From a virus (lineage: Duplodnaviria; Caudoviricetes): a DNA stretch of 32,894 nucleotides. Location of the stretch: the IMG/VR virus record IMGVR_UViG_3300031159_000040, positions 1 to 32,894 of that record. One strand, written 5' to 3'. The stretch's first letter is position 1. Each line of letters starts with the position of its first letter. Below are positions 4,452 through 32,580 of this stretch, in pieces. The position numbers and the translations under genes were made by a program. The notes beneath the pieces were generated by a model. The model was not told the DNA's origin, did no database searches, and worked only from the letters and a program-made list of their open reading frames with translations.

Positions 4452-4616
4452 ATGGCAAAAATCTACTACAAGGACATCCTGGTCGGAGAGGTAGTCACAA
4501 ACCGCAGCTTGACGGTGGATGAAGCGTTGGAGGTAATCGGATTTGACGAGCAAGCGTTTAACGCAGAGCACGGATTCGACGACATCGACTACAACGATTT
4601 TAAGCTTGTGTACTGA
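4452..4616 (+). CDS. 54-aa acidic hypothetical protein
   Basis: RBS AAAGGAGAGG; 12 D/E vs 4 K/R. Confidence 0.75.
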   Translation: MAKIYYKDILVGEVVTNRSLTVDEALEVIGFDEQAFNAEHGFDDIDYNDFKLVY

Positions 4617-4644
4617 GAGCGGAGGGGCTCCGGCCCCTCTCTCC

Positions 4645-4707
4645 CCCGCCTGATGATGGCCGGATGGTAACCGGCCGAAACGTCCACCCGAGCGTCGCGG
4701 GATACCC
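4645..4707 (+). ncRNA. Type I hammerhead ribozyme (HHR1), predicted cleavage after C4696
   Basis: Stem I CCCGC/GCGGG; core CUGAUGA; one extra U; stem II GGCCGG/CCGGCC; GAAA; stem III ACG/CGU; GUC cleavage triplet. Confidence 0.85.
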
Positions 4708-4730
4708 GCCACGAGTTGAAAACCGCATAC

Positions 4731-4770
4731 CGCATAAGCCCTCACCTTCGGGGAGGCAGCGGGGAAGGAG
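4731..4770 (+). repeat. UUCG hairpin + RBS leader element, copy 1
   Basis: CGCATAAG(C/T)CCTCACCTTCGGGGAGGC(A/G)GCG also at 5343-5373. Confidence 0.8.
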
Positions 4771-4778
4771 AATGAACC

Positions 4779-5321
4779 ATGAAACTCTCTCAATTGCTTG
4801 CCACTAAAAAGGTTGTCGCTTCTGGCTTTGCCGCTATTGCGGGATTATCCGCGTACTCGCGAGGCACGGAAGAGGTTGTCCTGTCGTCGCTGGCTCCGTC
4901 CATCTTGGCGGAACAAGGAGTAACGGAATACTATGCGCTGGAACTTCCGCGTGGGACAGTCTACAACACGTCGGAGGAGATTATCGCAGCCGATCCGGAC
5001 GTGCGTCGCTACACGATTCAGCCGGTTGCCAACGTGAGTGACCTGGATGTGGTGATTGTCTCCCGCCACGCAGGCACAGTAGCGCTCCTGCAAGACCGCT
5101 ATCCGGGCGCTCAGGTACTCGACTCCGTTACGCCGAACCAAATCGCCGGCAAACACGTCGTCGGCACGCTGCCGCCTCATCTTATCACCGCTGCTGGCGC
5201 GTACACCGCCGTTACGATTCGCGGGTTTGACTACGCCAAGGACGGGGACTTGGCGGGTCAGGAGTTGGCGGCGCGGATTGTCATCGCTGACAAGCCGCTC
5301 CGGGTCGTGGAGATTAACTAA
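4779..5321 (+). CDS. Csx16-like putative cyclic-oligoadenylate ring nuclease (tandem domains)
   Basis: C-terminal VIVSRHAG...IAGKHVVGTLPPHL...GQEL matches Csx16 (VVA1548) motifs; N-terminal half looks like a degenerate copy. Confidence 0.7.
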   Translation: MKLSQLLATKKVVASGFAAIAGLSAYSRGTEEVVLSSLAPSILAEQGVTEYYALELPRGTVYNTSEEIIAADPDVRRYTIQPVANVSDLDVVIVSRHAGTVALLQDRYPGAQVLDSVTPNQIAGKHVVGTLPPHLITAAGAYTAVTIRGFDYAKDGDLAGQELAARIVIADKPLRVVEIN

Positions 5322-5342
5322 CCATAGCGATACATAGCGATG

Positions 5343-5382
5343 CGCATAAGTCCTCACCTTCGGGGAGGCGGCGCGAAAGGAG
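5343..5382 (+). repeat. UUCG hairpin + RBS leader element, copy 2
   Basis: Near-identical to 4731-4770. Confidence 0.8.
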
Positions 5383-5390
5383 AAATGAAA

Positions 5391-6107
5391 ATGTTTAACA
5401 TTGATTTCGTCTATGACTCGACCAATCTGCCGAGTCAAACAGGTAAAGAAGGCATTCGGGCGGCTCTCCACTATTTAGATGCCGCGGACGGGCAAATTAA
5501 ATCGATTAAGGGCAAGATTGGCTATGGTCGGTATACCGCCGGTTACAGTCGGGATGGAGGATTTACTTCCAGATCGTACGGATTTTCTATGGCGCAGGAG
5601 GGTATCCTGCTCAGGTATTTTGACAACAGCAACAACGGGAGCTGGACCTGGTTTATCCCAGACGATCTCTCCGAGATAGAGGGCGTTCTCGTTTTTGCTT
5701 TTACAGCACATGGCAGGTCCATCGACTCATATGTCCAAAGTATTGACTACGGCTTGGTGTTAAAAATCAATACTGCGAACTACGGAGATCGGCATCCTTT
5801 AAATTTGATTTACGATTCTGTTAAATTTGACCAATATCGACCCGAGTTTAATCTCTTTGGAGATTATTTGGCTGTCCTTTTGCTGTCGCTTTTGGCCGAG
5901 TATAAGGACGCATTAGCGTATCCCTTTACTACCGGAGCATTGGAGGGTAAGACTTTGGGGTCTGCGCTGTATGACATTGCATCTCGTAGGCACTCAGCTT
6001 TTTTGGATGCAATGTTGTCCGGGGACATTAAAGTCGATCCCGCCCAACTTTTGAGGGGATCGAAGTACCTCGGGCGGGACCTGTATCCGCAATATTATTC
6101 GGCATAA
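5391..6107 (+). CDS. 238-aa hypothetical protein
   Basis: RBS AAAGGAG 8 nt upstream; no family recognised. Confidence 0.75.
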   Translation: MFNIDFVYDSTNLPSQTGKEGIRAALHYLDAADGQIKSIKGKIGYGRYTAGYSRDGGFTSRSYGFSMAQEGILLRYFDNSNNGSWTWFIPDDLSEIEGVLVFAFTAHGRSIDSYVQSIDYGLVLKINTANYGDRHPLNLIYDSVKFDQYRPEFNLFGDYLAVLLLSLLAEYKDALAYPFTTGALEGKTLGSALYDIASRRHSAFLDAMLSGDIKVDPAQLLRGSKYLGRDLYPQYYSA

Positions 6108-6201
6108 ATGACAAGAGCCCCCTTACGGGGGCCATGTCGTGTAGGAACAAGGTTGTTTTAATCAACGCCTCGCTCGTGGCGGGCGACAAGGCCGAAGCCT
6201 T
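6108..6201 (-). ncRNA. Solitary type I-C-like CRISPR repeat RNA (Racr/crRNA-like candidate)
   Basis: 5' UUCG hairpin, repeat GTCGCCCGCCACGAGCGAGGCGTTGATTAAAAC (6187-6155), ~22-nt spacer-like segment, GCCCCC-GTAA-GGGGGC hairpin. Confidence 0.7.
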
Positions 6202-6236
6202 ATCTGTATAATATACAGATACCCAAAACTTGTCAA
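6201..6236 (-). promoter_or_regulatory. Near-consensus SigA promoter with operator for the repeat RNA
   Basis: TTGACA(6236-6231)-17-TATTAT(6213-6208); inverted repeat TATCTGTAT-AAT-ATACAGATA (6201-6221) over the -10. Confidence 0.8.
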
Positions 6237-6325
6237 CCCACCTGACGAGCGCGCAAGCGCCTTGGGACCGCTGGGTACGGTCCGAAACCGCCGCGTCGAG
6301 ATGACGCCGCGGTCGCGGGATACCA
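6237..6325 (+). ncRNA. Type I hammerhead ribozyme variant (HHR2), predicted cleavage after C6314
   Basis: Core CUGACGA; inserted GCGC-GCAA-GCGC hairpin; stem II GGACCG/CGGUCC; GAAA; stem III ACCGC/GCGGU; GUC; stem I CCCAC/GCGGG with one A-C mismatch. Confidence 0.75.
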
Positions 6326-6455
6326 GCCACGAGCTGGCCCGGCCGGGCTGGCCTTTATATAGATTGTTCTTTGAAAATAAAACAGGACTCGTCAAAATCC
6401 GATATATATTGTAACATGTGGAATAGAATTTATTCCTACAATTGGGGGAATTGGA

Positions 6456-6956
6456 ATGAAAAAATCTTTAATCGCTGGCGCAATTGTTGCCGCGCTCCTT
6501 GCCGGATGCTCGGCAGAGACTGATAGTCTTAAGCCTGCTAGTGTACCGGCATCGGTAAGCCCAGTTCCTGCAATCGAAGCGCCCGAGTCGACGACTGCGC
6601 AGGAAGTGGCTCAAGAAACGGCGAAGCCTACAAATACGGAGAAGAATGTGCCTAGAGAATATACGGCAGCATTAAAAAAAGCGGAAATGTACGCTGAGTC
6701 TATGAGTATGTCAAAGGCTGCTATTTATGATCAACTGACCTCTGAATATGGAGAAAATTTTCCGAAAGAAGCCGCTCAATATGCCATTGATAACATCACT
6801 TTTGATTGGAAAGAAAATGCATTAAAAAAAGCAAAATTGTATGCGGAATCTATGAATATGTCAGATTCTGCTATTTATGATCAACTGACCTCTGAATATG
6901 GAGAAAAATTCACCAAAGAGGAAGCACAATATGCGATAGATCATTTAGAAAAATAG
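6456..6956 (+). CDS. ltp: Ltp-family surface lipoprotein (superinfection exclusion)
   Basis: Lipobox LAGC; two 50-aa repeats A/NALKKA..YAESM.MS..AIYDQLTSEYGE.F.KE.AQYAID. Confidence 0.9.
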   Translation: MKKSLIAGAIVAALLAGCSAETDSLKPASVPASVSPVPAIEAPESTTAQEVAQETAKPTNTEKNVPREYTAALKKAEMYAESMSMSKAAIYDQLTSEYGENFPKEAAQYAIDNITFDWKENALKKAKLYAESMNMSDSAIYDQLTSEYGEKFTKEEAQYAIDHLEK

Positions 6957-11279: not shown

Positions 11280-12662
11280 ATGAATGAATTAATATTCGAT
11301 TACAGAAAGAAATCGTTTAGAGAACTATTTCTTATTTACTTTCTGGTTCTGATTCCTTTGATTGTTGTTGTACCTTCTTTTTACCGTCCTGAAATAAATA
11401 AAATTAGCCCTTCTTTTGTGTTTACAAACTTGATCATAGGCTTTACTTCGCTAATAATGATCATTTTAGAAGCAAGAAAAACGATGTATTCTCTTCACTT
11501 GATCCATTGGCTATTCCATTTTTCATTTTTCTTTATCGCTCCAATCATCCAGTATTTACATAATAAATTTATGTGGGGGAATTTAACTTCTGATGACTTG
11601 AATGTACTTATAAAAGCAAATATTTTAATCATTTTGTGGCAGTGGGTATGGATAATAATCGCAATAATAACAGAGAAAAAACATATATTTAAAGAAAATA
11701 CTGACGAGTTCGGCACCCAAATAGGAATTAGTTCACTTCGCTTTTTTATTTTGTTTGTTCTATGCGTAATTGACTTATTCTACTTTGTTCAAATCATCGG
11801 ATTTGGAGGTCTATTTGCCAGAGGTTCTGAAAAATTATTCTCTGACAACAGTTCGCTTAATCAAATTATTTATAATGTCGGAAAATCACTTCCTATTGTT
11901 TTATTAGTTGCGTCATATTACCAAAAACAAGTAAAACAGAATAAAAAAACTTGGTCATTTATGATATTAATTTCAGCAGTACTTGTTTTACTTTTAAATT
12001 TTCCAACTGCCGTCTCTCGCTTTTGGATGGCTACCGTGTATATTGGTATCATCTTGACATTTTTTAAGTTTAAGTCCAAGAACCTGTTTACTTATCTGCT
12101 TATATGCGGATTGCTCATTTTGTTTCCGATATTAGGATCTACACGTCATGCCTCCAATCTTAACGATTGGATCAACATTATGTTAACCAATGGATACACT
12201 AACAATATTTTAACAGGTGATTACGACGCATTCTCTATGATAAATCATACCATTCGTTATATTGATATATATGGCGTTACTTATGGCCATCAATTACTGG
12301 GTGCTCTGCTGTTTTTCATTCCCAGAACGTTTTGGGAAAGCAAGCCCATCGGAAGTGGGCCGACTGTTTCCGAGGGACTTGGATTAAGCTTTGACAACAT
12401 ATCAAACCCTTTAATATCCGAAGGACTAATCAATTTCGGACTACCTGGTTTATTTATATTTGCATTTTTGTTTTCCTTCGCAACCAAAAAACTAGATTTG
12501 CACTTCTGGTCAAATGGAAATTCGATTTTTAAGATTTTATACCCCTTCTACATTGGTCTATTCTTCTTTATGATGAGAGGAGATTTGTTATCTACTTTTA
12601 GTCTGACGGTCAGCTTTAGCTTTGCGTTTTTTATTTTCCTCCGACCGTCGAAAAAGAGATAA
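11280..12662 (+). CDS. Wzy-like polysaccharide (O-antigen) polymerase, moron
   Basis: 460 aa, ~11-12 TM; SR motif, FFIPRTFWESKP, EGLINFGLPG, MRGD motifs typical of Wzy/O-antigen polymerases; low GC; opposite strand. Confidence 0.8.
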   Translation: MNELIFDYRKKSFRELFLIYFLVLIPLIVVVPSFYRPEINKISPSFVFTNLIIGFTSLIMIILEARKTMYSLHLIHWLFHFSFFFIAPIIQYLHNKFMWGNLTSDDLNVLIKANILIILWQWVWIIIAIITEKKHIFKENTDEFGTQIGISSLRFFILFVLCVIDLFYFVQIIGFGGLFARGSEKLFSDNSSLNQIIYNVGKSLPIVLLVASYYQKQVKQNKKTWSFMILISAVLVLLLNFPTAVSRFWMATVYIGIILTFFKFKSKNLFTYLLICGLLILFPILGSTRHASNLNDWINIMLTNGYTNNILTGDYDAFSMINHTIRYIDIYGVTYGHQLLGALLFFIPRTFWESKPIGSGPTVSEGLGLSFDNISNPLISEGLINFGLPGLFIFAFLFSFATKKLDLHFWSNGNSIFKILYPFYIGLFFFMMRGDLLSTFSLTVSFSFAFFIFLRPSKKR

Positions 12663-32198: not shown

Positions 32199-32580
32199 GT
32201 AAGACGTCGCACGCAGTCATCAAATGGGGCCCTCCCTGCACCCCGCGGCGACGGTCGGCTCACCATTTGAAAGACGCGGGAGCCTACGCGCCGAACGCAT
32301 CTTTAGCCGGGCGTCCTACGGCATCGCAATATGCTGCGCGCCGGTCCGGTCGGCGCACATAGAGGATTTGCACCCTCTTTACCACGTCGGATCGTTCCAG
32401 TCCGGCGCAGAAAAGAAGGGACAAAGCCCTTCATGGGGTCTCGAACCCCGCCCCATCTCCACACGCTCGGCGACTCGCGCCTAAGGCCCAGCCGATTTCG
32501 GCTCACCCACCGCATGGCCGGGTGCCGCAAACGATAAGGGGTACAGCGGCAATCACCCGAGCATTAAGCTCTATGTGATT
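32152..32580 (-). ncRNA. Long structured late-leader RNA candidate
   Basis: GC-rich non-coding stretch with many hairpins, two T-loop-like hairpins and two terminators. Confidence 0.45.

Follow-up and report, generated by a model that had tools for sequence, protein, structure and literature searches.

Genomic setting of the two hammerheads

The DNA analyzed here is a 32.9-kb viral record (32,894 nt at its full length, hereafter the window), in which portal, terminase, head, tape-measure, Dit, and endolysin genes all lie on the - strand. The best match of the terminase is Aeribacillus phage AP45 (68%) and the nearest listed ribozyme relatives in named genomes are from Cohnella and Paenibacillus, from which we infer that the host is likely a member of the Paenibacillaceae. 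On the + strand, two hammerhead-type RNAs enclose a pair of ORFs and are followed by a lipoprotein gene (Table 1). The original prediction, made from the sequence alone, had described the downstream RNA as a hammerhead with 16 nt between CUGACGA and stem II (6249-6264) at the point where the upstream hammerhead (4645-4710) has one U, and it had also pointed to an A-C mismatch in stem I and to the lack of a directly following ORF. All of these features lie where it had placed them, with A6240 opposite C6316 and the next SD-led start at 6456, 142 nt after the cut site.

Table 1. Features of the ribozyme cassette and of the insert-type hammerhead within it
Feature	Position	Strand	Basis or remark
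Upstream type I hammerhead, one extra U after A9	4645-4710	+	predicted cut after C4696
ORF between the ribozymes, C-terminal half like Csx16/Cas_VVA1548	4779-5321	+	24.1 bits, below Pfam cut-off of 25
Second ORF between the ribozymes	5385-6107 (longest frame from 5340)	+	family searches without match
Hammerhead-type RNA, type I, 16-nt insert	6237-6326	+	all core bases present
Stem I, 5' strand	6237-6241	+	A6240 opposite C6316 is a mismatch; relatives have G there
Conserved core CUGACGA (C3-A9)	6242-6248	+	sequence
Inserted hairpin A, GCGC-GCAA-GCGC, 4 bp, variable loop	6249-6260	+	fold and family comparison
CUUG, predicted minimal helix B	6261-6264	+	C6261-G6264; plus C6260-G6265 if the register slips
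Stem II, 6 bp, 7-nt loop (predicted pseudoknot side)	6265-6270/6278-6283	+	fold, covariation
Conserved GAAA (G12-A14, A15.1)	6284-6287	+	sequence
Stem III, 5 + 5 bp flanking a 1x1 C-C mismatch	6287-6313	+	fold; A15.1-U16.1 at base
C17, predicted cut 3' of this base, GUC site	6314	+	position from hammerhead consensus
Stem I, 3' strand	6315-6319	+	fold, sequence
3' tail, predicted 4-bp pseudoknot partner of loop II	6320-6326	+	A6325 is C in the closest listed relative, L254
Terminator-like hairpin, then UUUAUAUAG	6331-6362 (hairpin 6333-6352)	+	can capture tail 6323-6328
Degenerate sigma-A-like promoter candidate TTTATA, 18 nt, TAAAAC	6354-6383	+	faces lipoprotein gene; inference
Ltp-type lipoprotein gene, next downstream; annotated superinfection exclusion	6456-6956	+	phrog_4980; PF07553, E 7e-50

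The centroid fold reproduces all of the hammerhead helices (z = -1.96). Seven of 200 shuffles fold just as stably, and thus folding energy alone is weak evidence for the element. A type I descriptor tolerating any insert finds two elements in the window, 6237-6326 and 4645-4710, and when the whole window was shuffled 200 times with dinucleotides preserved, a looser insert-type descriptor produced 4 matches on the two strands combined. Searches with Rfam 15 yielded no hammerhead match at E values up to 10 within 4500-6500, and the hammerhead families likewise stayed below threshold over the whole window and 24 loci or regions. Ordinary neighboring hammerheads were missed in both cases, including the one at 4645-4710, so the silence of Rfam 15 on the insert-type element is uninformative. 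A blastn search of 6100-6460 against 50,697 phage records returned short chance matches only.

The upstream hammerhead is present as an identical copy in the related phage L035. Both L035 and a second related phage, L037, share sequence with the window up to about position 6188, and the downstream ribozyme is absent at that site in both. One metatranscriptome contained 7% of words, and its two contigs cover 4729-6163 of a related phage but no part of the 6237-6326 element. The window copy also does not abut a stop codon, unlike most of its relatives: in seven genome regions, the ribozyme starts no more than 2 nt from a stop codon in five, overlaps the stop in one, and begins ~170 nt past it in another. 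In one of the regions, the strand of the insert-type hammerhead also bears two twister ribozymes, and in all 15 type III members an SD-like sequence and start codon were seen by eye just downstream. These stop codons, twisters, SD/start sequences, and the tandem layout form a context typical of working phage ribozymes.

Additional features surround the cassette. On the - strand, a strong promoter-like site (6236-6208; TTGACA, 17 nt, TATTAT; 11/12) has the ribozyme start at the edge of its -35 box and is aimed at a terminator-like hairpin (6133-6116). Together, the promoter and terminator (6236-6105) frame a folded RNA of ~95 nt (z = -3.6, no Rfam match), which is a candidate small antisense RNA; L035 and L037 retain its folded segment together with promoter boxes that resemble those of the window. 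A perfect 9-bp inverted repeat (6200-6220), possibly an operator, overlaps the -10 boxes of both this site and a + strand promoter-like site (6183-6212); it is absent in L035 and L037. Positions 5343-5391 of the window resemble 8242-8290 of L035, such that where the second cassette ORF starts, the window matches a leader that in L035 belongs to a different gene following the upstream hammerhead, which suggests gene exchange through a common leader sequence. Farther away, an epsC RNA motif (RF01735, 67.5 bits) is located upstream of the phage late region (32435-32558, - strand), while a low-GC gene opposite the tail genes (11280-12662, + strand) weakly resembles TIGR04370 oligosaccharide repeat-unit polymerases (38.8 bits, cut-off 40) and is possibly a surface-conversion moron.

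A conserved family of insert-type hammerheads

The motif search proposed with the original prediction was productive, as it recovered at least 42 distinct relatives with compensatory changes. Seven pattern scans, two protein-anchored scans, and a covariance-model search, the last of which took in 136 genomes from a single family and matched in 27, together gave at least 655 loci, mostly chance matches. Applying a single descriptor to these loci and the window extracted 46 distinct insert-type strings and 23 ordinary ones. Three of the 46 were dropped: L425 and L469, in which a plain long stem II had been mis-parsed, and L435, which has a damaged stem II. The insert type thus comprises at least 43 distinct sequences, of which 28 (counting the window) are type I and 15 are type III, and it recurs across dozens of other phages and bacteria; L490, L574, L591, L335, L620, and L622 stand outside this count even where they are discussed. 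Most of the scan patterns fixed part of stem I, the G after the core, or the C before GAAA, and the members are akin to one another, so the conservation counts given here are inflated.

Among the 24 aligned type I sequences, 97.6% of cells are paired and two-sided changes occur at 10 of 19 pairs, among them 2 of the 4 pairs of hairpin A and 5 of the 6 pairs of stem II. The 15 aligned type III sequences behave similarly (98.9% of cells paired, two-sided changes at 11 of 18 pairs). None of 500 shuffles reached the paired fraction of either type, and slid partners give 30-50%. The tertiary stem I/stem II contact also seems to be retained as a predicted pairing, since a loop II-tail helix of at least 4 bp is available in 28/28 listed type I members (shuffled tails: mean 9.7, maximum 17) and a loop-loop helix of at least 3 bp in 14/15 type III members (shuffled: mean 7.9, maximum 13). 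At the insert site, the ordinary siblings among the listed loci have either 0 nt (16 sequences) or a single U (7 sequences). One sibling with the single U (L621) has a stem II and loop identical to those of an insert-type member (L618). These siblings speak for an insert between A9 and G10.1, although homology does not fix the folding register. Other searches were less fruitful: all 13 loci from a pattern with the stem II of the window fixed were chance matches, 21 loci around the lipoprotein gene contained no hammerheads, and 39 loci around the endolysin gene contained one insert-type hammerhead (L049) and two ordinary ones. From these comparisons, we conclude that the insert is a conserved family feature rather than a private accident or a product of decay. 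That it is maintained in two permutations would be expected under selection for cleavage, with cleavage itself being a prediction, and the family is likely active.

The segment between hairpin A and stem II, at first sight a linker, is CUUG in 30 of the 43 listed sequences, CUUUG in 5, CUAUG in 2, CUCG, CAUG, and CAGG in 1 each, CA in 1 (L587), and a full hairpin in 2. It begins with C and ends with G in 42/43 of the listed sequences, and the same holds for 36 of the 37 whose scans imposed no linker sequence, two of the latter coming from a model trained on CUUG members. In both L326 and L455, the segment is a full hairpin of 5 and 6 bp, respectively, again with C first and G last. In CUUG tetraloops, the C and G pair across UU. 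The kept C...G bracket and the full hairpins of L326 and L455 make a second, minimal helix B the simplest reading, and the CUUG segment is therefore likely such a helix, formed by one predicted C-G pair over a loop of 2-3 nt. Hairpin A, helix B, and stem II would then follow each other without an unpaired base, which is the layout of a perfect four-way junction. The loops of hairpin A are of 27 different kinds among the 43 listed sequences, which argues against a binding site or ligand control. Ligand or protein sensing by hairpin A was rejected on this ground, and the suggestion that the ribozyme might be regulated is not supported.

Folding register, activity, and competing explanations

With moderate confidence, we favor a type I hammerhead RNA that likely self-cleaves after C6314 and whose conserved insert is predicted to form two stacked side helices crossing the core between A9 and G10.1. 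The sequence itself, the family, its covariation, and the genomic context are the observed parts of this proposal. The hammerhead fold places stem II in a stack on the sheared A9.G12 pair. Hairpin A (4 bp), mini-helix B, and their neighbors A9 and stem II would abut without gaps, creating a perfect four-way crossover in which stem II and the A9.G12 stack supply the remaining two arms. The stacked A-B pair of helices would replace the single phosphate between A9 and G10.1, whereas G12 would still be linked to C11.1; this arrangement would preserve the usual coaxial stack, the active site, and the pseudoknot of loop II, with the insert pointing away. Because the length of stem II and the pseudoknot are unchanged, the chemistry would be ordinary, and the predicted cut after C17 would leave a 2',3'-cyclic phosphate and a 5'-OH. 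The insert would be a tolerated structural elaboration, exchangeable with a single U or with nothing, rather than a sensor. In this phage, the ribozyme may trim the 3' end of a two-gene cassette opened by the upstream hammerhead, just before the terminator-like hairpin. The pairing of B in its CUUG form, the register, the stacking, cleavage, its rate, and this role are the predicted parts. The original prediction of a four-way-junction hammerhead is upheld in part, as to an insert variant at A9/G10.1. The insert itself is better described as two helices, which gives a five-helix junction or, with a slipped register, a separate four-way junction set one pair deep in stem II.

The two registers are one branch-migration step apart, and both are possible in 42 of the 43 listed sequences, window copy included. 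In the unslipped register, G6249 pairs with C6260 and G6265 with C6283, and both A and B lie between A9 and G10.1. In the slipped register, G6249 pairs with C6283 and C6260 with G6265, so that G6249 becomes G10.1 of a canonical core that would cleave just the same, with A (3 bp) and B (CC-UU-GG) branching one pair into stem II. We consider the slipped fold unlikely, even though it accounts for several observations. It would make the near-invariant G after CUGANGA and the C before GAAA the usual G10.1-C11.1 pair, it gives helix B two pairs, and it fits the statement, in the part of PMC10085705 used here, that known alignments show no insert longer than 1-2 nt beside CUGAnGA. The first pair of hairpin A is G-C in 41/43 listed sequences and its second pair varies, a pattern that is unexplained by the unslipped register. 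Furthermore, the three-hairpin junction of the type III hammerhead L591 (- strand, about 245-335) is fixed at a point two pairs inside stem II, and the hammerheads L118 and L388 have bases bulged after G10.1, which indicates that the junction need not sit at A9. However, the slipped fold requires a lone pair between two junctions, which is weak, and it is impossible in both L455 and L490. In L455, the A that follows CUGAUGA has the terminal U of hairpin A as its partner and is unable to pair with C11.1; the remaining stems are intact, as is a pseudoknot of 6 bp. The single inserted hairpin of L490 likewise begins with A. L455 is one sequence of putative activity, which limits its weight for the unslipped register. 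The CA of L587, which is all that separates hairpin A from stem II, also speaks against slippage, as does the result that no member with a covarying outer B pair (non-C CUUG non-G) was found among the 120 loci listed from 35/64 parts of the viral collection. ViennaRNA placed the unslipped fold 8.6-9.4 kcal/mol lower in 6/6 sequences. Its model is without coaxial stacking, the A9.G12 pair, or a 2-nt loop, and the gap derives from the multiloop penalty, so it was not counted for either register. Overall, the unslipped register is likely and is put first.

Within the favored reading of an active family, the condition of the window copy requires separate consideration. Its A-C mismatch is the only one in the four core-proximal stem I pairs among the 28 listed type I members, and the 10 type I members found without fixing stem I are all perfect in those pairs. 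Its pseudoknot is the fourth weakest among the 28, with A6325 both shortening it and making the tail available to the downstream hairpin; when 6320-6362 is folded in isolation, 99% of the tail pairing is with that hairpin. In the window copy and 16 related hammerheads, with or without insert, a terminator-like hairpin and UUUA(C/U)AUA lie downstream of the cut, 36-38 nt away in all but one, and overlap a possible promoter of the next gene. The promoter-like boxes of these relatives read TTTACA, with a TANNNT/C box at 17-18 nt in 6/17, and those of the window are degenerate relative to L619. The copy may therefore be slow or decaying. Likely it is slower than its relatives due to the mismatch and the weak 4-bp pseudoknot, in agreement with the earlier suggestion of a slowed ribozyme as far as this copy is concerned, but with a cause other than the inserted hairpin that had been suggested. 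That it is a decaying remnant of an otherwise active family, devoid of a useful cleavage rate, is quite unlikely in our estimation. Tail capture, the degenerate boxes, the lack of an abutting stop codon, the empty site in L035 and L037, and the existence of damaged copies elsewhere (L435, L620, and L622) would all fit such a remnant. On the other hand, its core bases, core-adjacent pairs, stems II and III, and insert are all intact, the mismatch affects the second stem I pair and leaves four C-G pairs, and 4-bp pseudoknots are common to several relatives. A different proposal is that the junction is a switch, in which register migration or tail capture sets the rate or favors ligation, for example to circularize the 1.6-kb cassette. 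The four bases needed for migration are kept in 42/43 listed sequences, loop II has a stronger predicted pairing with the upstream ribozyme's tail (6 bp, -7.4) than with the tail next to it (4 bp, -5.4), and circular products have been considered for tandem phage ribozymes (PMC3088659, as far as the part used here goes). Nevertheless, a switch seems highly improbable. PMC3088659, in the part used here, reports that neither spliced nor circular products were detected, no partner hammerhead was present within 11-14 kb around 7 genome members, the upstream ribozyme of L035 is without a downstream partner, the loops of A and B vary freely, and neither L455 nor L591 is able to migrate. The better pairing with the upstream tail is equally explained by common ancestry of the tails, and it is the sole hint of the ligation bias raised in the original prediction. 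Also very unlikely is the boldest model we considered, a subclass with a four-way crossover in its active-site junction in which one-pair branch migration would tune the rate and a 1.6-kb two-gene RNA would be excised, its ends refolding into a hybrid ribozyme with a better pseudoknot to circularize the RNA.

Relation to known hammerheads

The bases that define the hammerhead class are all in place, namely CUGANGA at 6242-6248, GAA plus A15.1 at 6284-6287, the A15.1-U16.1 pair (A6287-U6313), and a NUH triplet (GUC, 6312-6314). The core-adjacent pairs of stems I, II, and III (C6241-G6315, G-C6283, and A6287-U6313) are also present, with covariation in the family. In ordinary members of the class, CUGANGA leads into stem II directly or across at most 1-2 extra nt, within a three-way junction. 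Here, 16 nt lie between them in the unslipped register, and the slipped one restores the direct connection; both are possible in the window copy, and only the unslipped register in L455. A non-circular permutation was rejected, as the strand after CUGACGA pairs with at most one base of the strand before GAAA.

Among described systems, the tandem prophage type I hammerheads of Perreault et al. 2011 (PMC3088659), which cleave, have a loop II-tail pseudoknot, and flank genes, are similar in core, three stems, GUC site, pseudoknot, and tandem position around a short gene block. They differ in that their core variants, in the portion of the paper drawn on, are substitutions and 1-2 nt insertions rather than a 16-nt two-helix insert at A9/G10.1. 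The original prediction had noted that single-nucleotide insertions are known at this site, and indeed A9 and G10.1 of the CChMVd (+) viroid hammerhead are separated by one additional A (De la Pena and Flores 2001, via an excerpt of PMC3705267), and an extra U there is reported to raise the rate of a viroid ribozyme 3-4 fold (PMC3705267, same excerpt). Seven of our relatives carry that single U at the same insertion site, whereas the insert family has 14-32 nt of paired helices in place of one base. The RAGATH-1/PK hammerhead (RF03152) is, according to the sections of PMC12192606 and PMC11300833 used, likewise a bacterial variant with an extra hairpin, but that hairpin is located 5' of stem I and its stem II has one pair, whereas the window RNA has a 6-bp stem II with a loop that is predicted to pair with the 3' tail. 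RF03152 matches no insert-type member, its sole match being an ordinary neighbor in L098 (28.4 bits versus a threshold of 56.3). The non-circularly permuted SGC/CSG hammerheads (Eckert et al. 2023, sections of PMC10085705) share the theme of a rearranged connectivity around an intact core; unlike SGC/CSG/GCS, however, the block order here is ordinary, being CGS in type I and SCG in the 15 type III members. The divergent hammerhead of bioRxiv 10.64898/2026.10.21.760802 is described as three-stemmed in the portion seen, with some overlap with the insert type possible. Other hammerhead variants are described in the available parts of PMC3088659, PMC12192606, and PMC5737381. A full-text literature search, its scope being mainly outside of subscription journals and supplements, found no description of such a two-helix insert hammerhead.

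We conclude that the insert type is a real, conserved structural variant of a known ribozyme class. It adds no new chemistry, and biologically it appears to serve the same role as other phage ribozymes. No small ribozyme has been studied better than the hammerhead, and in a 2023 survey (PMC10085705, portion used) known alignments are without an insert longer than 1-2 nt between CUGAnGA and the stems; the same authors assume that their "Block C" is interrupted by no more than 1-2 nt. A natural family with a 14-32 nt helix at that spot would overturn this working rule, and the assumption about "Block C" would be broken by L455, as well as by the window RNA if it is unslipped. It would also show that descriptor and Rfam searches miss a hammerhead subclass. 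For design purposes, the site would offer a new graft position for aptamers or scaffolds that leaves the stem I/stem II contact untouched, and the family offers a small test system for an RNA four-way crossover coexisting with a catalytic core.

The scans also turned up a few unusual hammerheads. In the type I hammerhead L630 (+, from 1507), the 11-nt unit containing CUGACGA is repeated three times in tandem. In the type I hammerhead L335 (+, from 305), 8 unpaired nt are inserted between the core and stem II, and the pseudoknot partner is intact. Near-identical pairs of ordinary hammerheads occur 250 nt apart in L352 (+, 53 and 305) and about 1.1 kb apart in L621 and L644.
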